A stretch of 64,000 bases of DNA. It comes from Vermamoeba vermiformis (lineage: Eukaryota). The stretch covers positions 372,001 through 436,000 of the forward strand of contig JBEWZL010000152.1 of assembly GCA_045837725.1 (NCBI GenBank), written 5' to 3'. A program made the translations under genes and the position numbers. Shown piece after piece: positions 42,374 through 60,089 of the stretch (its first letter is position 1; the number at the start of each line of letters is the position of its first letter). The notes below the pieces were generated by a model. It saw nothing but the letters and a program-made list of their open reading frames with translations, was not told the DNA's origin and made no database searches.

Positions 42374-43532
42374 ATGGGTGGAAAGAAATCTAAGCCAGCG
42401 AGAGAACAACCGCCAGCTTCAAATAAAAATACCAATAATAAGCAACCAAAATCTAATAAAGCACTCGAGTATAAATTATTGATTGTTGGCGATGCTGGTA
42501 AGTGTCGTAATAATATTCGGTTAAAATTGTAATTCCGGAGCGGATGTTTCTCCCACGCTAACTCGCAGAGGATAATATTATTGCTCAATATGAAATTAAT
42601 CACTATTATATTTACCGCTTATCCTCAGAGTTTATTGAATTTTGATTGTTTACCGTTTAATATTTTTGATATCAAGCAAATATTTCAGGCATTCTAACGA
42701 TTTTGTATTATAGGCGTTGGTAAAACAAACTTATTAACGCAATTTACGGTAATAATTTACGGTAATAATTAATGGAAAAACTGGCCAATAACACAAACTC
42801 AATAGGACGGCAAATTCTCTGACCAAGTAGCGAATATTGGAGAAGATTTTGTAAGTGATTTCGTGCGTCACACAATATGAAAATATTAATATGGTGTTTC
42901 CACGCAGAAACGAAAAGATGTCACAGTGAACGGACAGACGATTCAATTACAAATTGTAAGTACTCCACTGCCACTGACACGCGCTCGATCGTATTCTCGA
43001 GGCATATGAAGAGCATATTATTGCACCATGTATTAATCGATTGCCTACAGTGGGACACAGCGGGTCAAGAGAAGTTCAGGAAGATCACGTTCGGTCTGTA
43101 CCGCGGAGCCCACGGTATTGTATTGGCATATGACATCACTAAGAAAGCGACACTCGACAACTTGGACAAGTGGCTCAAAGACATCACTGACTACGGCGGT
43201 GAAAAGGTCACCAAGATCGTCGCAGGCAACAAGACGGTACGCGTCACTCATGTCGCACTCGTGCTCGTACTCATAGCATTGTATTTAGGACTTGGAGACC
43301 GAGAGAGTGGTGACCACTAAGCAAGGCCAGGTAAGATCATACTAACAGCGTGGTACTTGTCACGTGTGCTGATCGTGATCCGCAGGACTTCGCTGAATCA
43401 CACAAGCTTGGCTTCATTGAAACAAGTGCTAAATCGAATAAGAATGTAGAAGATATGTTCCAATTGATCGCAACCAAAATTTTTGAAGCTAAGCGTGATG
43501 CGCCAGACTCAGAGGGTTCGGAGTCAGATTAG
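42374..43532 (+). CDS. Rab1-like small GTPase, N-terminal MGGKKSK leader, no C-terminal Cys
   Basis: KLLIVGDAG|VGKT, NIGEDF, QI|WDTAGQEKFR, YRGAHG, GNKT|DL, ETSAK; ends DSEGSESD*. Confidence 0.9.
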
Positions 43533-44344: not shown

Positions 44345-45599
44345 ATGGGTAACGCGGGAGGAAAGAAGAAGGGCGGCAAGAAAGGAGCCAAAACAGATAA
44401 TGCATCCAGCGGTGGAACTAAAACTCTTGCTAACAACTCTGAATATGACAAATTATTTAGAATATTAATGGCAGGCGATCTAGGTAATTTACCTAAAATA
44501 ATTTCGCACCCACCGAATAATCACCAAATATAGTTAACTAATATCCATAATATATTGGGAGAAATAATTTTGAAACTGATATTCAAAAACGAAAAATCTC
44601 CGCTTAATATTAAATTACCGATCCTTTGACAAATATCAAAATTAAGATTAACACAATATTAATGTGCTAATAAATGATGTGGGGGTGTAATATTGGACTA
44701 CAGCTCTGTAAGAAATTGCGAGAGTTGTCAACGTGTCGTTTTATTCAGTAGCTTTCTAACTGCTCGCCTAGGTGTCGGAAAGTCATGCGTCGTATTACGT
44801 TTTACAGTGAGTAACATTTTAAATATGAATATATGGGACTCAAACTCTTTACAGGAAAATTTCTTTTCGGATACGCCGATCTCGACGATTGGAGACGACT
44901 TTGTAAGCAATGAACAATATTGAAAGAGCGAATGAGATAACTGACCGTATATTAATAGAAAACAAAAACATTTGACGTCAGAGGAGCAAAAATCAAAATG
45001 CAAATCGTAAGTAGTTTGCTAACACTATTCAAGGCATGATATTAATAGTTTTATGATCTAGTGGGACACAGCGGGCCAAGAGAAGTGAGTGCTCGATTAT
45101 TAGCAATAATGAAATTGTTATGTGAGGCAGTACACGGAACACAATGTAACGCGTGCTTTTAGGTTCCGTTCCATTATTACCTCCTCATACTACAGAGGGT
45201 CGCACGGTGTATTGATGGTGTTTGATATCACTAATCGCGCGAGCTTTGAAGGCTTGGACAAGTGGTTTGAACAGATCAAGACTTACGGCAGTCCTGACAC
45301 CACTATTCTCATTGTTGGCAACAAAACGGTGCGGCTCTACTACAACTCGAAATACAATATGCTTCTAACATGTATAATATTGTAGGACTTGAACTCTCAA
45401 CGAGCTGTCTCGGAACAAGAGATCAAGGTAAGTCCTGTGTCACGATTTCCAGCCATAGGCTCTTACTAATGCTAACCTTCAGGATTATTGTGCTCGCCAA
45501 CAAGTCGAATATGTAGAAATGAGTGCGAAAGACAACAATGGTGTAGAACAAGGTTTTATCAGGCTCGGTGAGCTGATCCACGCTAGACAAAACGAGTAA
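44345..45599 (+). CDS. Rab1-like small GTPase, N-terminal MGNAGGKKKGGKK leader, no C-terminal Cys
   Basis: EYDKLFRILMAGDLG|VGKS, STIGDDF, WDTAGQEK|FRSIITSSYYRGSHG, GNKT|DL, EMSAK; ends LIHARQNE*. Confidence 0.9.
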
Positions 45600-45792
45600 A
45601 GCTGCTGTACAAATGTCATATTATTTATTGCTTTAAATCTTGCGGTGTTTTATTAGTAAAATTATCATAACATAAGCGTGCTAGACTGGCGTGTAAACAT
45701 GGCGGCATTATTTTTTTGAAGTTCGCAATTTCTTTGGTACCAGTACGCGACATGTTTTTCGAATTTGAATTTGAACTGAAGAGAACCCAACA

Positions 45793-47469
45793 ATGAAGAG
45801 AAAGCAAGACGAAGTAGTTGTGTTGGATAATGATGGCAACAAACGAGCCAAATTGTCTGTTCAATGCGAGGATCAAGTTGCCACCCTCGAATTTGCTCCT
45901 CCAATAAGCAAAGACAGATTACGACAGCTAATTGCAGAAAAATTCAACAGACAAGCCGGTATGTAAATTATTGATAAAAGCCATCATCAGGCCTTCTCAG
46001 AAAAATAAAAACAATTATTTTGTTTTTCGGATCAGCCTAAGATTTATGAAATTCCTAGCGCACAAAGTTAACTTTCAACTCGCAAACTGGACATTAAAAT
46101 AGCAATAAATACAGTTTTTCCAAATAAAAGAATTAACGTTGTTCGAGCAGACGACTTGCTGTCGATCTTATCAGCAAAGGGAGATGTGGTCAGTCTCAGC
46201 GCTCTAGGAACTCGGCCGCAGCGGTATCCTGGAGAACTAACTGTTATTTTCATCGACTCATCGACGAAGAATGATATGAGGCACAACAAAGACCTCTATG
46301 TTGGAGATGGCAGCGCGCAAGTTGTCGATCTCACGTACGCACAATCTTGCCTGCTCGACATGTATTAATCCTTACTGTTACAGAGAAGATGCTACTAATT
46401 TATGCGCGCGGTGCCTGCAGAAATACGAAGATGTCAACGACAAGTGCTACTATCACCCTGGCAAATTGGTCGAGTCACGAACTGAAGCTCGCAAATTGAT
46501 TGTCAAGTCTCTCGAGGTCAGCAAAGAGTTAATAAGACATCCTAAGTATTAACACTAACGTACAAAATAGTCTTCCGAGTCTCTTGTCAATGGCGTGCCT
46601 ACTGAAGTGTCGCGAGAGTACAACAAGAAATTGCTACGATGGAGCTGCTGTCAAGGCAAAAAGAGTAAACTTGGGTGCACAACAGCTGACAAGCATTTGG
46701 TAGGTCATAGTCGTTGTGTGGTCATCGCAGTGAGTTAACACCTGCCTAGGCAATGACAGTGCCCAAGTCCACCGATGACAGACTACTCAAGCTGTTCTCA
46801 GAGCAGAGCACACCAAAAACATCAGGCCCCAACAATAACAATGTTGCAGGCGATGATGATGTGCAGATTGTGGAGCGTATCTTGGCACCAGTAAATATTC
46901 CCGGCGTTGATACTGCTGGACAACACGTGCTGAACACGTGCATTGATCGCAACAGAAGCTACTGTCTCAATGAACAGAAGACACACACGTGGACTGGAGC
47001 CACGCATGGTAATGACAACCGCACTGAGCAAACGTGGATGAGACTAACAATCAACAGAGGGCGGTGGTTATTTAGAGTCCGATGTAGATCCGCAGCTGTT
47101 GTGGTGCATTCAATTTGACAAAGCACTCAAGTTGCACTCGCTGCAGATACGCGCACCAGAAGGTAAGGGTGCGTAGTACCGTCTTACGCGGTACTGACCA
47201 ATCCTGTTGCAGATCAAGCACCCAAGACAATCAAACTGTTTGCCTCGCGCGTCAACATGGACTTCAACGACATTGACAGCATCACTCCGACACAAGTCAT
47301 CACTGTGCTGCCAAAGAATCTCGGTCCGAATGCCATCATCAAGCTCAATGTCAGCAAGTTCGCGAGCTGTACTTCTCTTACCATATTTGTAGAGGACAAC
47401 CAATCAGACGCAGACACTACGCGTATCGATTACTTGCAGCTGATTGGTCAGACTGTTCGACGTCATTAA
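45793..47469 (+). CDS. SIM-rich protein with beta-grasp-like N-domain, Btk/CHORD-like zinc finger and C-terminal PITH domain
   Basis: PITH: CLNEQKTH..YLESDVDPQLL..KLHSLQI..APKTIKLF..MDF..SLTIFVEDNQSDADTTRIDYLQLIG. Zn finger: CARC..CYYHPG..WSCC..GC..H. Confidence 0.8.
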
Positions 47470-47535
47470 AAGAGCTTTTTTTGGCGCACTTTTTTTGAAA
47501 GTAATTATTATTGAACACGCACAATCAGACACACC

Positions 47536-48381
47536 ATGGGGCTTTTAAAAATTCTTAGAAAGCTCAAGCAAAAAGAAAAAGAGATGCGCATATTGATGCT
47601 GTACGTCAAGAACATTAGCAAGCAAACTAGATTTGTTTTCTGCTGACACTTAATAATACAGAGGTCTTGATAATGCCGGCAAGACGACTATTTTAAAGAA
47701 ATTTAATGCAGAAGATATTAACACTATCAGTCCAACCCTGGGATTCAATATTAAAACTCTTGTTTATAAAAAGTAAGCTCATTGTTATTATTCGATATTA
47801 AGTATCCACGCACAACATTAATTACCGAGTAATTATTACTAGATATAAATTGAATATGTGGGACATAGGAGGTCAAAAGTCACTGCGATCGTATTGGCGC
47901 AACTACTTTGAACAAACAGATGGTATTAACAGGCATAATGAAGCAATAGCTAACTAAATTAACACCTAAATAAATAAGGTCTCGTTTGGGTCGTGGACAG
48001 TGCAGATCGACGACGATTGGAAGATTGCAAGCAGGAGCTTCAAAGATTGTTGCAAGAAGAGGCATGCATCAGCAATGCAATACTCAAGGTGCATGTTATC
48101 TAATTACTGGTACAGAAATTGGCTGGTGCTTCGTTGTTGATATTCGCCAACAAACAAGATCTGCCTGGTGCTTTGTCGAAAGAGGATATCATTAATGTAA
48201 GTGTTTATAGGTACGCTAATGAGTATGTCATTCTTATTTGTTGTAGGTGCTCGAATTGAACTCAATTGTCAACAGACACTGGACCATCCAGATTTGTAGT
48301 GCAGTAACGGGTGAGGGTTTGCAGGATGGTATTGATTGGATAGTGGGCGATATTTCATCGCGTATATTTATGTTCGATTAA
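47536..48381 (+). CDS. ARL2: ADP-ribosylation factor-like 2
   Basis: [75 protein letters not shown]. Confidence 0.96.
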
Positions 48382-51262: not shown

Positions 51263-54200
51263 TTACAGCGGTGCGAGCAGTGTTTCCAAGCTGTTGACTG
51301 CACTCGTCAGCGCGAGCACAAAGCCAGCAGTGGGTGCAGGAGCGAGTGGCACGGCATAGGGCGAGGTACCGAGCTCACTCGTGCCCGACAAGTACAGTGC
51401 GCGCAATGCTTGCACAATAGCGTGACCGTGTTGCGTGAAGTGCTGCACAATGAATGCCAAGAATTCAGGGTGTGGCTGCTGTTCCAAGGGCAGTCGTGTG
51501 CCTCGCAGTGTCTCGCACATGTGTTGCACGGACAAGATGAGTGCGCGCTCGTTGTAAATGCGGCTCTGTAGCGTGCCGTCACTCGTGCCGCGCAGTTTGT
51601 CGTACCCTGCTTCGAGGAAATAGGGCTCGCGCACTCCCAACACCAGTCCTTGCAGACTCAACAGCAGCTGTGGCGAGTGTTAGTCAGATCTGAGAATGAC
51701 ACGTGTCAACGAGTGACTTGCCTGCAAGAGATTGGAGGTGTCAGGATTCCAGTCCTCAGTGGTGCTCTTCGTGATCCACGTGCCCAACAGACTCAAACAG
51801 ACACTGCCGTCCGTGTTCAAGTTGGGATGCAACTTCTGACTGGTCTTGGAATAGTAGTGCACGAGCGGAGGGACTTGCGGATACTGATCGGGCAAGTAGA
51901 TGTCAAACACAAACAGGGACTGAAAGTTGAGGGTTAATTAATTGTTCTCTATCGCCTCTGTATATTCATTGAAATCATTCTGCGATGATTAATGCGGCTG
52001 TTACGGTACCTGATAGTACGGCGTGTCTTTCGGGCCAACGATGAGTGCTTTCAAGAGGTCAATGCGTCCCTCGAACACTTTGATGTAGATGCCAGGTGTC
52101 ACATTCTGTTGCAGCGTGGTCCATTCTTTCATCACCAAGTTGCAGAACTCGCTCGTAATATTTACCTGCAGATAAAGACTCTCTGTTAGTCGATGTTAAC
52201 AGCGTGCACATTGCGCTACTGACATGGCTGCGTGTGAGGAAGTGATGTTGCGCCACCTCTTCGAGCACTTCGAAGGATGCAACACTGTCATTCAGCTCAC
52301 TCGCACTGACACTTGGTGGCACAATGGACTGCGTTTCATGCGCGACAGTACTCGAGGGTTGAAGCCACTGCTGCAGTTTGGTGATGGCAGACCAGAGCAG
52401 TCCTGAGCTCTGTGCCTCACTCTGCGCCGTGTCCTCTGCACTCTCCTCGCTCCCTTCGTACTCCTCGCCACTCTCTTCGTCGCTCAGCTCGTCAGTGTAC
52501 TCGTCGCTCAGCACGAACAGTTCGCCAGGCCACATCTCGCTGCTCACACCGCTCGTCCACTGCACACTGATGCGAGGCCCGTGCAGTGCAGTCACTTCAC
52601 CGAGCCACTCGTGCACGGTCAGTCCTGTCTCGCGCTGTGTGGGCAGTCGCAGCACGACATCGCCGAGCTGATAGCTGAAGTCAGGGTGCGCGCACAGATC
52701 GTAGATTGACACTTGTTCTGTCACGTGCTCGTCGGGCACTGTCAAGTCACTCTTGAGCCACATGACTACAGCTGTCTGGTGCGCGGCATTGACACTTTGA
52801 ATGACACCTGTCACTTCACCGCGTGTCACAAAGTCGTCGGGCTGGAAGTCATTCTCCAACAAGTGATCACGTGATTTCAACAGCGTGCTGTCCACGTGTG
52901 CTGTCACTGTGCCATCCTGCCACTTGACATCGACATATGTCCGTGTGCGAATAATGCGCGCGGTCACCCATTGCAAGCCTTGCAGGGCTGGTGGGAGGTT
53001 ATTTCCTAATTTGGAAGGTGAAATCAAACACCAGTCGCCCAGTTGCCAAGTGTAGGGCTGCGAGTACTGCAGCACGTGCAATGTAGCGACTGGCACGTGG
53101 CGAGGAGGGGCCAGCACGTGATTTCCATTTTCGGTAATTTGTTGCGCTGCTGACCACGTGACTCCAGCCCACACTGGTATGACACGTGTCACCACACCAT
53201 ACTTGTGCGCACGTGGAATGAAATTTCCTTCAGTGTACTCCGCGAATGGCTCAGTTTCATCTTCGGGCACGTGATTCGCATCTTGCAAGAGGCCCTGTGA
53301 AATTTCAACGACTTGACCCACGTGATAATCCACGCATTCATGAACAATCTGCAAATAGAGCTCTTCGTCCCAACTGCCCTCGTCCGAGTCATAGTTTGAC
53401 ACGCTGTCACTTGCCTCGCTGTCTGATGACGTGTCACTCGCGGTGGAGTCACGTGACTGTTCTTCATCTTCAACCTCCGCGTCAGTGTTCAGTGAACCGC
53501 TGGAATGATGTTGCTTGAATTTCTTGAACTGCAGCCACAGCGCACGCCAATTGACAGCTGCATCGTTGACAGGTGTCACTAGCTCTACCGTCGCGTTGTG
53601 AATCAGAGCACGTGACCCATTCACGAACTGAACTTCTACGTGACTCATCACTGATGACACGTGTCAAAATGAGGCCCGTGCCATGAGTGCTAAAAATAAC
53701 TTACCGCCGTCTATTTTTCCGACCCAATTCGAGCCCTGGTGACTGAGTGCCACGTGACTGCCGTGCTCGATGGTGATTGGGCGCACATCACGTGACGAGA
53801 TCTCGTTGAAGACAGTGACATCACGTGACTTCTTCGGTCCATATTTGGAAGTGATCTTCTTGGTGAGCGCGGCGAGGTCGTCGAGGGGCGAGGAGTACAC
53901 GGCCAGATCCAGCCCCAACTGCGCGACATTAGGCCTGGTCGTGCATATATATGTATATGTGGTGTGTACTGACCTGCACTGCCTGCACGGTGCCTGATTG
54001 CGCGGCATTGCACACCACGTCTGCGGGCTGAAAAGCACGATCGACCACCGTCACCTGATCTGCAGCCTCGATCGTGAGCACGTGATTCTCTTCCAGGCCT
54101 GTGTCGTCGTCGAGGGGCCAGGACAGCTTGATTTGGTTCGGTTCAGTGAACGGCTCTTCGTCCTCGTCCACATCCGCGGCTAGCTCTTCATTCTCCCACG

Positions 54201-54351
54201 CCACTAGAGACAGATCAGTTTGGTGTGCAGAATATTTAATATATATTGTCCTGATATTAATACCTTTGGTCACAATGGCCAGACTGGTCGGCTCGTCGTT
54301 TACATAGACCAGATCCTCTTCAAAAATGTTGGGTGGATCTTTAGTGGCCAT
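51263..54351 (-). CDS. UBE2O: UBE2O-like E2/E3 hybrid ubiquitin-conjugating enzyme
   Basis: VVDRAFQPADVV, TYVDVKWQDG, HPDFSYQLGDVVLRL; UBC domain RIDLLKALIVGPKDTPY..YPQVPP..HPNLNTDGSVCLSLLGTW..EPYFLEAG. Confidence 0.9.
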
Positions 54352-54562
54352 TCACGAAGCAGTCAACTAATACGTACTAGGGGATATATATTACAAATTA
54401 ATACAACAAATGTGCACGAATTCGGGCAATGTGTTCTGGCCGTAGTGTTGATGTTCTTCGCGTGTGAGGAATGAAATGTTTTTTCAGCCGAGATCCAGCT
54501 CTTGACAACAGCTCACTGACGTCGAATAATTTATATAAATAATATCACAAACTGTAAATATC

Positions 54563-56373
54563 ATGAGTGTGCTGTCTAAAGATTCAGTCAAGATCATTGC
54601 CGAGACAGTCGGGATTAACACGATCAGCGAGGATGTTGCAACACACGTGTCCTCTGATGCTGAATATAGACTGCGCGAGATTATACAAGTATGCGATAGT
54701 GGTTAAGCAGCCTAATCTAGTCAAATAATATTAATTGGTGCTTATTAAAGGAAGCGATGAAATTTATGGTGCATAGCAAGCGAGAAAAATTAACTACAGA
54801 AGATATAAATAGCGCACTACGACTAAGAAATGTCGAGGTATGCATATGATACTACAGCGTTATTTTCGGAGCATAGAGAATATTTATTTATTTTTTCAGA
54901 TATTATTTATTCATTTTCATAATTCTTTTGACTATAATTGTCGTAACTAGCTTAAGATAACAAATAAATATTATATTAATGTCGAATGACAACACTATTA
55001 ACATGAAAATTGGTTAAAGGCGCTGTACGGTTATTCTACACGAGATCCGCTGCGGTTCGTGCGTGTGGCAGGTCAAAAAGACTTGTTCTACGTGGAGGAT
55101 CAAGAGCTCGATTTCAACGAACTGTTCAGCACCACGCCACTCGGTTCCAATCCGCTGCTCAAGATGCCCAAGTGTCCGCGTCAGATCTCCCTGCAAGTGC
55201 ATTGGCTCGCAGTGCAGGGCGTGCAGGTAATTACTACACTATTGTGCCTATACTGTGCATATATATTGAGCATACACGTACTCACGCACTGCAGCCACAA
55301 GTGCCGCAGAACCCGAACTTCACGACCACGAGCAGCGAGGTGAGTGAGCCGAGTGTCAAGAAGTCGAGCGAGGACGAGGCAGCGGTGGTGAGTGCCACGA
55401 CTGTCGTGTCGAGCGAGGGCGATGTCGAGGTGAAGCAGACCGTCAAGCACGTGCTCAGCAAGGAACAGCAGCTCTACTACAAGAAGATCACTGACGCCGT
55501 GCTCGCGGTCAAACAAGGTGTGAGCAGTGACCACGAGGAGCTGTTGCACGCAGCCCTCACCTCGCTGAGCACCGACCCCGGCATTCATCAGCTGCTGCCC
55601 TACTTCACCAAGTTCATTGCCACCAATGTCACCAACAACTTGCGCCAGCTGCGGCTGTTGCGTGCACTGATGCAAATGATTGAAGCCATGTTGAAGAGCT
55701 CCTATTTGCATCTCGAGCCATATTTGCACCAACTCATGCCCGCCATGCTCACTTGTCTCGTCGGCAAACGACTGTGCGAGTCACCGACGGAAAATCACTG
55801 GGAATTGCGGGACTTTGCCGCACAGCTGGTGGCACGCATCTGTCGCCGCTACGGCAAGGAATATCGTGATTTGCAGCCACGCATCACCAAGACACTGCTG
55901 CACGCCTTTTTAGACCCCGTCAAGCCACTCACCACACACTACGGCGCTATTGTCGGTCTCGGCAAGATGGGCCCGCTGGTGGTGCAAAGCTTGTTATTGC
56001 CTAATATGGTAGCGTATCTGAATCTGTTGCTGCCAGAGCTCACAGCTGCCAATCCAATCAAACGACTCGAGGCCAACAAGTGCTATGGTGCATTATTGGT
56101 GCGATATATATATGAGGCATAACAGAACTGACTGATTACTCACACGTACCGCAGAATGTTTCAGGCACGTACTTTGCATACGCGATGGATCTGTCCGCCA
56201 CCACGAGCAGTCTCAAGTCCAAGACCAACAAAGAAGCAGACAACGACAAGAAAACAGTGCACGAACTGCTGCCCGACTTTGCGCACTACTACAAGCAGCT
56301 GTACGACATCTTTGGCGAGGCACTGCTGCCGTACTTGAAACAGAACCGCGAAGTACTGAGCACCATTCTTTAA
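54563..56373 (+). CDS. TAF6: TFIID subunit 6
   Basis: Histone fold AEYRLREIIQEAMKFMVHSKR; HWLAVQGVQP; KHVLSKEQQLYY; DPGIHQLLPYF; NHWELRDFAA; THYGAIVGL. Confidence 0.95.
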
Positions 56374-56454
56374 TTCTCAACACCTGTACAAGTAATATAA
56401 TAATAATCGTTGTGGATAAATGCGCGCTGAGAATTAGCTGCCCTTGTATGTACA

Positions 56455-59400
56455 TTATTCCGCGGTGTTATTTTTAGCTTGCTTTTGACGCTGTTTTTCC
56501 GCTTTCCACTGCTCAATGCGCTGCTTGAGCTCGACATCGGGCTTGAGCATGTCGAGGGTGAGGGGCTGACGATTGAACGGATCAGTCGGCGAGGTGAGCA
56601 AGTGGCGCGTGATCACCGTGCGGTCGATGGTCATGCCCGAGGGCAGCACCACGGGGTCACTCATCACCGTGCTCAACAGCGGGTCCAAGAACTCGTCAGG
56701 CGCGTCACTCAGATCCAGTTCATCCTCGCGTGCCTGCGCTGCTTCTTCTTCAATGGCACGCAGCACTTCGTCAAAGCTGTGCACGTGTTCGCTGCTCAAC
56801 AGACTCTTGTTCTTCAGCACTTCACTCACGCGCTGCCACGTGCGCAGATCAAATGCACGTGTGTCACGCACAATGGCGCGCACAAAGTCCTGGCTGCGCA
56901 AGCCAATAGCGATCAGTGCCAGACGTGTCAGCAGTTCACCAGGTGAGAATCGTGCGCGGCGATGAGGCTGCACGGCGAGTCTCGCAGCATTCGGTCCGAC
57001 GAGTTGACGCGTGAAATAATTGACGAGCACGGCCAATCGCTCCAACACCTCTGCGCGGTGCAGCACTGAACTGCCGTCATCGAGCTTGGTGACCACCACG
57101 AGCAGCTTGAGTGTGTCGTGTGCGAGCAGACTGAATGTGGTCATTTGATTGGTCTCCGTGTGCAGCTCTTGTTGCAGTTCAGTGCGGTGTTGTGCATCGC
57201 GTTGTGCCCACTGATCGCGGTCCTCCATCATCAGCTCAATCTCGCGAATGCGCGGCAGCTTGCTCATCAGTTCTTCGAGCAGGTACATGGCATCGTTCAT
57301 GATCATGTTCAAGAAGTGCATGAAGCGGTGCTCGTCGTGCATCACTGCGCGGAACTCGCTCGGGTACTCGTTGCTGGTGGAGGCACTCAGTCGTTCAGCG
57401 AGCAGTGCCAGCAACAGCTTGGCAATGTGGCGCCGCACAAAGAACTTGTCGTAGAACTGCGAGGCCCGGCCCGTGCGTTCAATGTCAATGTAGACATCGA
57501 GCAGTCCGTGCAGCACTGTGCGCGGTGCTTGGTCTTGCAGTGGATCTGCTTCCCAGGACAGGCGCGCACGTGACGGCAGTTCAGCCCCGTCCTCGTCGAG
57601 GTGTCGATAGAGGGCTGTCATCTCCCACAAGACTTGCACCAACTTGCCGCGGAGATAGGGCGAGTTGATGCCGTGCTGCTGGCCAGCGAGGGGTGCGAGG
57701 AACTTGACGATGAATGTGACGAGGTGGTGGTAGTGCTGGGGCGGCAAGTGCAGCTGATACACGTCCTCGAGATCTTGGGCGCGCACTGCTGCTTGCATCT
57801 TGAGCACGAACAGCACGAAGCTGGCGAGATCATCGACGAGATACTCGGGCACCAGCGCGAGGGCAGGCACGTGATGTTCAGCGAGGTGCAGCAGCCAGCG
57901 CGCAGTGAAGGAGTAGAACTGCAGGGCGTGTTGCAGCAGTTCAGGGTCCAAGAGCTGCGCGTCCATGGTCAGCTTCATCACGGCAAGGTTGTCAATCTGT
58001 TGCGCGAGTGCTGTCAACTGCTGCTCGTTCACGGCAGCCATCATCGCGTGTCCGCTCCACTCAGCACGTGTCGCATTCAGCTGCGCGCGTCGTTCTTGCA
58101 TGTGAATCAGTTGCTGCACGAACTGCAAATAGGCCTCGCAGCTGCTGGCCAGACCCGTGTGCAGCACTTGCAGCGTGGTGAAGAAACACTGCGTCACAAA
58201 GCTGTGATTGGTCAGTGCCGCGCTCGCACTGTCACGTGGCTCAGTCGTGATCAGCTTGGTCTCGCTGCTGTACTGCAAACCGAGACTGTTCTGCTGCAAA
58301 AATTCAACTTCAATGCTGCTGTGTTTGTCGAGCTTCAATTCAGTGAACGGCTGTGACAACTTCAACATGACAGCTGTCAAATTGAGGAACACACCGTCCG
58401 AGCACGTGGTCACTTGACGTGTCATCAAGTGTCCTAATTGAGAGCGCGACTTGTTCTGCTGGCACAGTGCCACCACGCACTCCAACACGCCTTCGGTGTC
58501 GCGCGACAGTGCTTTGCGCTCCATTTTGATCACCTGCGTGAGCGTGCTGGCGAGTGAGGTGTGCAGCGAGTGCAGCAGTGCGCGCAGTTGTGTGAAGGCC
58601 GCGGACAGTTGCGCACGTGTCACTTGACCGCGCTGTGGGAAGTACTGCTGTGCCACCGCGAACTGTTTGTAGCTGCAGAGTGACAGCGCGGGACCGAGCA
58701 GTGATTCGAGCTCGAATTGGCGACCGTTCATGAACCGTGTGGGTGACCAAGCCACGTGACGCTTGATGCTGGCAGCGAGGGCAGGGTGACAGCTGAACAG
58801 TCGCAAGAAAATAGCTGCAATGGATAGCGAGTGCGTGTCAACCAGGGCACCACGCGAGATCTTGCGCGCGAGATCGCTGACCAGGGGATGAATCACGTGA
58901 TCGAGCGTGTCACCGTGCTGATCAGCTACCAGGGCCAGCAGTGCAGAACTGACTTGCAGCTCGTAATCTCCTGAATATCTCGACATGCTCGAATTAGCAT
59001 CCGCTAATAATAGCTCTTCCAAAATAGGCCATGTGACAGTATTCTGCTCGCACAGTGGTGACAGCAGTGCCGTGTCTTGCAGCACCAGACCCAAATAAGT
59101 CGCGATCGATCGTTCCACTGTTGTCACGTGCTCTGCGGTGCTCCACGTGCGACCTGTCAGCTGATCACGTGCTCGGTTGAAGCTCCGCACGAGATACTCA
59201 ATGGCATCACGTGACGCGGTGAATTGTGCGAGTCTCTCGAGCAGCAGCGAGTCCACGTGACCAGGTGTCAAAGTGTCACTCGCGCTGTGTGTCAATTCGT
59301 CACTCAGCCCTGGTAGATGGGCACGATCTTTGCTGGCACCTGTCAATGATACGCGGAATATTTCGAGCAATCGTTCATGAAGCAACTGCGCCGGAGACTT

Positions 59401-60089
59401 GACTTTGACAGGTGTCGTGTCAGTGAGGGGGCTGGTGGCACTCTGCTCGCTCTGAGGGGCAGTCTCGTGCTTGGTGTAATGGCCCTCATGCTTATTGTTG
59501 TCCTCGTTATTAAGGCCCGCAGTATTATTGTTATCATTAAGGCCCTCACTATTATAGGATGGGCCCTCACTCTGCGTCCTCGTCTCGCTCTTGGTGCTCA
59601 CACGTGTCAAGAACTGCGCGTTGAGCTCCTGATGACTGCGCACGGGCTCGCTGTGCTGCACTGGCTCTGTGCGCGCAGTGGACTGTGTCACAACGGGCTC
59701 GCTCGTCGTCAATTTGTAGCGACGCAAGCGCTTGTTGCGCAGCTCTTCGGATGTGGAGGGATCTTGAACGGGTGCTGGAGCAGGAGTGATGTTGGTGTTG
59801 TTAGTATTTTCTACTCTTCGCGGTACATGTTGTTTGGTCAATAGCTGAACATTTACAGTAATTAGCGACAATATTAATTATTTTTCAAATTAATGCTAAA
59901 TATTCGTCGACGAAGTTGTGCCTTCACTGCAAATTGAATACTAACAGCATACGGACGATGCGCTAATAATAAAAGTACAGCGCTTACCTTTCGCAAAAAC
60001 ACGGCTAATACCAAGACAACAACGACGAAGAACCAAATAAAGTTGTTGGATGTGGCGGTGTCTACGCCAGTCGCTTGTTGTTCCTCCAT
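56455..60089 (-). CDS. UFD2: U-box ubiquitin conjugation factor E4 (UFD2/UBE4) with predicted N-terminal TM helix
   Basis: Ufd2 core ([39 protein letters not shown]) and U-box [19 protein letters not shown]. Exon 1 (60089-59988) splices in phase 0 to 59844. Confidence 0.9.

Follow-up and report, generated by a model that had tools for sequence, protein, structure and literature searches.

Among described proteins that carry a PITH domain, TXNL1 (Txl1) joins it to a thioredoxin domain, while Arabidopsis At3g04780 and PITHD1 are PITH-only proteins. TXNL1 and PITHD1 engage Rpn11 by a C-terminal tail. In two reports, the tail of PITHD1 is described as extended (PMC12700798) and the tail residues M275, F278, and H289 of TXNL1 sit on Rpn11 (PMC12700817). 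TXNL1 binding is severely impaired by R234D, by E136R/D162R, and by mutations in the tail (PMC12700798). The KD is given as about 35 nM when the tail is engaged. In the resting state, where the tail stays unengaged, it rises to tens of micromolar, and TXNL1 then contacts Rpn2 and Rpn10 in a manner that appears compatible with deubiquitination (PMC12700817).

Here we describe a gene of Vermamoeba vermiformis whose 410-residue product reads, in order, NLS, ubiquitin-like domain, SUMO-interacting motif (SIM2), CHORD-like finger, short helix, SIM3, and tail-less PITH domain. It lies in a window of 64,000 nucleotides (contig JBEWZL010000152.1, positions 372,001 to 436,000), and coordinates below count from the first letter of the window and refer to its forward strand unless stated. 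An original prediction, made from the letters of the window, had proposed a multi-SIM adaptor that delivers poly-SUMO substrates to the proteasome.

Gene structure, transcripts and neighbours

The gene extends from a start codon at 45793 to a stop codon at 47467-47469, as had been predicted, and is divided into seven exons: exon 1 (45793-45958, residues 1-56), exon 2 (46151-46334, residues 56-117), exon 3 (46384-46516, residues 117-161, with the first half of the finger), exon 4 (46571-46699, residues 162-204, with its second half), exon 5 (46750-47008, residues 205-291), exon 6 (47058-47162, residues 291-326), and exon 7 (47213-47469, residues 326-410 and the stop codon). Intron 1 (45959-46150, GT-AG, seen in contigs) measures 192 nt against 49-54 nt for each of introns 2-6, and its counterpart in the orthologous locus L055 measures 180 nt and interrupts the gene at the identical point. 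The short GT-AG introns give the window a eukaryotic character.

Transcript evidence comes from four of 24 listed public runs, taken from four studies and compared with positions 45560-47660. Run X11 is RNA on record, and runs X1, X4, and X7, which are RNA by guess, are taken as transcripts because their contigs show spliced joints. Intron 3 is spliced in all four runs and introns 1 (joint 45957>46150), 2, 4, and 6 in three of the four each, while intron 5 is cleanly spliced in one run and has a shifted joint in a second. A 1056-nt contig of run X1 spans 45788-47286, from the ATG side into the last exon, and crosses all six introns, which places the PITH exons and the N-terminus on the same transcript and removes the concern, raised with the original prediction, that the PITH exons might be transcribed separately. 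The stop codon lies 6 nt past the last listed contig piece, and orthologs terminate at the equivalent point. The gene is real and expressed. Models drawn from DNA alone with a shorter intron 1 (acceptors at 46102 and 46114, or a mini-exon) are ruled out by the spliced contigs.

The gene is flanked by small GTPase genes, a Rab-type gene upstream (44348-45600, with a Pfam Ras match) and an Arf-family gene downstream (47537-48381), which is presumably Arl2-like. The latter starts 67 nt past the stop codon of the 410-residue protein, and none of its transcript contigs begins before 47510. The Rab-type protein lacks a C-terminal cysteine, and its N-terminus (MGNAGGKKKGGKK) is polybasic and resembles a myristoylation signal; its copy at L055 shows the same features, by which an N-terminal membrane anchor may stand in place of prenylation. 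Another Ras-family gene is found at about 42859-43317. On the reverse strand, 5-12 kb downstream, are genes for a UBE2O-like protein (with SH3 domains) and a Ufd2/U-box E4 ligase (52062-59877), whose closeness is probably due to chance.

A monophyletic family of relatives

When the last exon was compared by phmmer with 1.84 billion representatives, 505 matches emerged, and the best 150 of the 505 were examined. The top match among those listed is P0001, a protein of 386 residues that is 38% identical along the whole protein, and P0006 matches at its N-terminus as well. Cluster look-ups led to two more members, P0154 and a protein of Arcella intermedia (Tubulinea), P0153. Among 80 loci from a metagenome scan, the non-PITH part was matched in one, L055. 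This locus is an ortholog in conserved synteny, again preceded by the Rab gene, and its introns coincide at all five positions covered. Searches by insensitive methods added no member: with a word index, exon 5 had no match among 21 candidates and residues 1-245 of P0001 matched only themselves among 369, and the family profile returned no additional member in 40 matches from 4552 candidates.

A tree of the PITH domains alone, built from 40 hand-picked rows out of 118 near-complete domains among 188 proteins, gathers the seven distinct family rows on one branch (98/87), which also appears in a quick 118-row tree (SH-aLRT 81). The family is monophyletic and takes in the Arcella intermedia protein. 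Within it the 410-residue protein has P0001 as its sister (99/94), both bearing the finger, and the other branch includes three long members, all lacking the finger; two further sequences, P0086 and P0091, are N-terminally partial. With the taxon drawn from one named relative, the family is probably restricted to the lineage of tubulinean amoebae. By eye, two other architectures were seen among the PITH proteins collected, a tandem double-PITH protein of 328 residues (P0042) and a PITH domain behind ankyrin-like repeats in a protein of 870 residues (P0088).

Domains and motifs ahead of the PITH domain

Under the usual definition of a bipartite NLS, the N-terminus has NLS-like basic clusters, KRK-x13-KRAK (45796..45852), kept in L055 as KRK...KRTK. 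A basic cluster of this kind is present in six of six members having that region, consistent with a nuclear location. The spacer between the clusters holds the first SIM-like motif, SIM1 (DEVVVLD, 45808..45828), which in L055 reads DEAVFLD; its core thus changes from VVVL to AVFL in an ortholog that is otherwise about 88% identical, with about 88-92% identity in the domains next to SIM1, and in which the basic clusters remain. From this comparison SIM1 is probably incidental.

Residues 20-91 (45850..46257, split by intron 1) are predicted to form a ubiquitin-like beta-grasp domain, in line with the beta-grasp-like N-domain first proposed. A model of the domain alone, made from the family alignment with P0006 as first row, has a pLDDT of 88, and the top 50 Foldseek matches to it are all ubiquitin-like folds. 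In VIA-align, the domains of Get5, Rad23, BAG6, midnolin, Dsk2, PB1, and doublecortin are tied at Z 7.6-9.3, with the UBLs of Get5, Rad23, and BAG6 at Z 8.5-8.7 and rmsd 2.4-3.1 over 76-78 residues. Compared with the PDB, the N-domain profile has three matches, all ubiquilin UBLs and none significant (E 0.56-0.85), and a look-up of the P0006 N-terminus in the ESM Atlas gave no usable match.

The finger (46403..46696, split by intron 3) has eight ligands, C124-x2-C127-x10-C138-x2-H141-x45-C187-C188-x8-C197-x5-H203, and the Cys/His finger noted at the outset is therefore present, with CHORD-like spacing. Its generalised pattern, C-x2-C-x10/13-C-x2-H-x45/52-C-C-x8-C-x5-H, was found in 3 of 193 proteins scanned, namely the 410-residue protein, P0001, and L055. 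As leads only, the ESM Atlas points to BTK/CHORD clusters (0.86-0.87). Pfam has no CHORD or BTK match in the exons or in the long family members, and the finger halves have no meaningful match in the PDB. A zf-HYPF match (E 0.028) was dismissed as a bare CxxC resemblance, and PRDM9 matches as a repeat artefact. The finger is, we assume, also similar to that of REXO1. CHORD domains are defined in PMC12129344 by eight Cys/His in two C3H ligand sets, an arrangement that the finger has. Judged by its ligands, it is predicted to be CHORD-like and likely to bind zinc.

Between the finger and the PITH domain lies a short helix conserved in the family, K/R-L-x-x-L-F (46771..46800), which is helical, at low confidence, in the P0001 model. 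In the family alignment its L and F are invariant in 9 of 9 rows, and its conservation across the family exceeds that of every SIM.

Judged by patterns familiar from the SIM literature, three SIM-like motifs exist where they were first placed. SIM2 (QVVDLT/ED, 46318..46390), of the DLT type with an acidic tail, spans intron 2, and its counterpart in L055 (LVDLTED) crosses the same exon junction. None of six more distant relatives has a DLT-type counterpart, and P0001 has a loose acid-first core close to the SIM2 position. SIM3 (DDDVQIVE, 46852..46875) is of the acid-first type and occurs as VQI[VI]E in five of eight lineages, which fall on either side of the family's basal split; Arcella has lost it, and in P0086 and P0091 it is degenerate. 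The SIM3 region of the P0001 AlphaFold model (211-232) has a pLDDT under 50 and lies outside the folded domains, so burial, one way in which the original prediction could have failed, does not apply to SIM3. Two SIMs are retained in L055, one in each of P0001, P0006, and P0154, and none in Arcella. The family core therefore appears to hold one SIM-like motif, SIM3, with SIM2 probably a second in this lineage, and while all three motifs are present here, the label multi-SIM overstates what is conserved.

Shuffling gives a measure of chance. The motif [PILVM][ILVM]DLT appears in 1.3% of 5000 shuffles. The protein has five acid-flanked hydrophobic cores where shuffles average 1.3, and 0.6% of shuffles reach that number, but two of the five lie in the folded beta-grasp domain or the conserved helix. 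Generic hydrophobic cores are not enriched (13, with a shuffled average of 8.4 and 8% of shuffles reaching 13). None of 29 thioredoxin-PITH controls has a DLT-type or acid-first pattern. Complex prediction of the helix and SIM3 with P0191, a SUMO of a giant-virus contig used as a stand-in, by a method unproven on peptides and run with the alignment unused, scored 0.14 and 0.13 against a mark of 0.34, values that weigh neither way. Separately, L081:239-511, on a giant-virus MAG contig, holds an intronless, intact-looking SUMO gene (Rad60-SLD, E 4.6e-20) that ends in GGK.

It is conceivable, if rather unlikely, that the protein is unrelated to SUMO. Its SIM-like motifs would then be incidental or have a different ligand, such as another beta-grasp domain, and the protein would serve the ubiquitin-proteasome system or a chaperone as a UBL-PITH cofactor. 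The decay of SIM1 in so close an ortholog fits such a cofactor, as does the absence or degeneracy of SIM3 in three of the eight lineages, and CHORD domains are reported to mediate Hsp90/Sgt1 contacts (PMC12129344). However, SIM2 is rare among shuffles and is kept over the exon junction in L055, where SIM3 is also unchanged although the preceding linker matches at just 11 of 17 positions. Transcript variants also alter residues 236 and 248 and spare the SIM3 core, a weak point with three non-synonymous sites in all.

The tail-less PITH domain and its possible function

Residues from about 263 to 410 (46924..47466, exons 5-7) form a TXNL1-type PITH domain by Pfam, fold, and alignment. Pfam PITH (PF06201) matches exon 5 at E 0.008, exon 6 at E 1.5e-7, and exon 7 at E 3.6e-23; by sequence, the last exon matches TXNL1 at E 1e-11, and the PITH domain of P0001 matches the TXNL1 fold with Z 24.3 and rmsd 1.6 over 154 residues. 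Pfam found no thioredoxin in the seven exons or in P0001, which bears out the earlier description of a TXNL1-type PITH domain with no thioredoxin.

The contact residues of TXNL1 are kept in part. D162 (here D301) and N139 are retained, while E136 is replaced by Y275 and R234 by N371. The protein stops six residues past the equivalent of G267, at about TXNL1 position 273, and the Rpn11 tail (M275, F278, H289) is absent, the terminal His falling at about 273 and not at 289. All ten family rows are tail-less, with 3-6 residues after G267. None of the ten has a basic residue at 234, compared to 50 of 62 tail-bearing TXNL1 rows and, counted by eye, 34 of 46 other non-family rows; the Fisher p of 5e-5 overstates independence since the family rows are related. 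Asn at 234 also occurs in six of the 62 tail-bearing TXNL1s. D162, the Rpn10 contact, is kept in ten of ten family rows; E136, lost in the 410-residue protein, is E or D in just 33 of the 62 canonical rows. A Lys two residues upstream of N371 might compensate for the loss of R234. The proteasome contacts of TXNL1 are ionic, and the family PITH charge is shifted toward neutral: five family proteins have a net charge of -3 to +1, whereas the median of 29 thioredoxin-PITH proteins is -8. The original premise that PITH domains bind the proteasome does not carry over directly to this protein: the PITH domain itself and D162 are kept, but the Rpn11 tail and R234, both reported as required in TXNL1, are gone.

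The same pair of losses is seen outside the family. The thioredoxin-PITH protein P0018 of Flabellula baltica (Tubulinea) has lost both the tail and R234, and P0018, P0061 (both with thioredoxin), P0104, and P0097 all lack the tail and have N or D where TXNL1 has R234. In the 40-row tree, a joint clade of the family and the tail-less thioredoxin-PITH proteins has a p-AU of 0.45. This distribution suggests that the tail and the Rpn2 arginine were lost together repeatedly, or once in a shared amoebozoan ancestor.

Our favoured reading, held with doubt slightly outweighing belief, is a nuclear adaptor that is recruited by one or two SIMs and carries a repurposed, weakly binding PITH domain. The protein would be a TXNL1 offshoot in which a ubiquitin-like domain replaced the thioredoxin domain and the PITH domain shed its high-affinity proteasome contacts. 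The NLS would carry it into the nucleus, where the ancestral SIM3, together with SIM2 in this lineage, may recruit it to SUMOylated complexes, with the UBL, the finger, and the PITH sandwich acting as putative protein-binding modules. Contact of the PITH domain with the 26S proteasome would be at most weak and in the tail-free mode, and the protein would therefore be no dedicated poly-SUMO degradation shuttle. Monophyly, the loss of the tail and R234, the charge shift, the NLS-like clusters, and the spread and exposure of SIM3 speak for such an adaptor. The gaps in SIM3, the retention of D162, the presence of Asn at 234 in some tail-bearing TXNL1s, the kinship of the rows, and a small family sample with one member from a named organism count against it.

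An amended form of the earlier model, a ubiquitin-independent SUMO shuttle, is improbable. SIM2 and SIM3 would capture SUMO chains, and docking on the resting proteasome would be bivalent, with the UBL on a ubiquitin receptor and the tail-less PITH domain between Rpn2 and Rpn10. Loss of the tail would then be adaptive, leaving Rpn11 uncovered, and nuclear substrates would be handed over without an E3 ligase. Such a shuttle gains from UBL and PITH both being proteasome-associated modules, from the retention of D162, and from the tail-free resting mode of TXNL1 itself on Rpn2/Rpn10 (PMC12700817), but R234 and the tail are both gone. The family core also has one SIM or none, while STUbLs are reported to use several for chain preference (PMC5129774). 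The UBL evidence divides likewise: the three profile matches in the PDB, though not significant, are all ubiquilin UBLs, and Rad23, BAG6, midnolin, and Dsk2 are among the tied fold matches, yet the fold scores do not tell shuttle UBLs from PB1 and doublecortin domains. Compared to ubiquilin, whose UBL patch residues are taken here in their familiar roles, the beta3-beta4 glycine of the family is preceded by an insertion and followed by an acidic residue. If the shuttle existed, SUMO conjugates would have a ubiquitin-free route to the proteasome; if it did not, a PITH annotation need not mean proteasome binding.

We give equally little weight to the PITH sandwich, freed from the proteasome, as a substrate- or degron-binding module like the structurally related DOC/APC10 domains, with the UBL docking the protein on a ligase, on p97, or on the proteasome. 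The next fold matches after TXNL1 and At3g04780, which include APC10, HECTD3 DOC, HERC2 DOC, and muskelin discoidin (Z 13-14), and the shifted surface charge would suit it, but any PITH domain shares that fold similarity and carbohydrate-binding modules score equally.

Full-text literature searches, in a scope with few subscription papers and no bioRxiv or picture supplements, found no paper that joins a PITH domain and a SUMO-interacting motif, nor one that joins a PITH domain, a ubiquitin-like domain, and an amoeba. Among the matches listed, the literature on CHORD domain architecture makes no mention of a PITH domain, and a search on SUMO shuttles returned an unrelated review alone.

The 410-residue protein resembles several known systems in part. 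It is like the STUbLs (RNF4, RNF111, Slx5/8) and Ufd1 in having SIM-like motifs in linkers and an NLS-like signal, but unlike the STUbLs it has no RING, for which Pfam gave no match in the exons or the long members and to which the CHORD-like ligand spacing does not point, and it has one conserved SIM against the three or four described in PMC5129774. Ubiquilin/Dsk2, Rad23, and midnolin share an N-terminal UBL, a low-confidence centre, and a possible proteasome link, while the family has no UBA or Catch domain (Pfam finds PITH alone in three long members, and with E values of up to 1 allowed it still shows only PITH, and no UBA, in P0001 and P0006); its UBL matches those of shuttle factors without significance by sequence, and the PB1 and doublecortin folds score level with them. 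The CHORD domains of Rar1, CHORDC1, and Rex3/REXO1 and the BTK motif share with the finger the two C3H sets that make up its eight Cys/His ligands, and Rex3/REXO1 is likewise reported with a single CHORD copy (PMC12129344), but the finger differs by a 45-52-residue insert between the first His and the CC and by its lack of a Pfam match.

The nearest relatives remain the PITH proteins. TXNL1/Txl1 shares the PITH domain by sequence and fold, with N139 and D162 kept, but the 410-residue protein has a UBL, a finger, and SIM-like motifs in place of thioredoxin, lacks the Rpn11 tail, and has Asn at the R234 position. Absence of thioredoxin alone is not new, because At3g04780 (matched through 1XOY) and PITHD1 are already PITH domains without it; those are PITH-only proteins, however, and plant-like PITH rows, unlike the family, seemingly keep a tail motif. 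The UBL-(finger)-SIM-PITH family is real and apparently undescribed. It is a conserved natural family in which the body of the PITH domain was retained, the tail and the Rpn2 arginine were dropped together, and a UBL was fused, and it thereby offers a ready-made test of what a tail-free PITH domain does.
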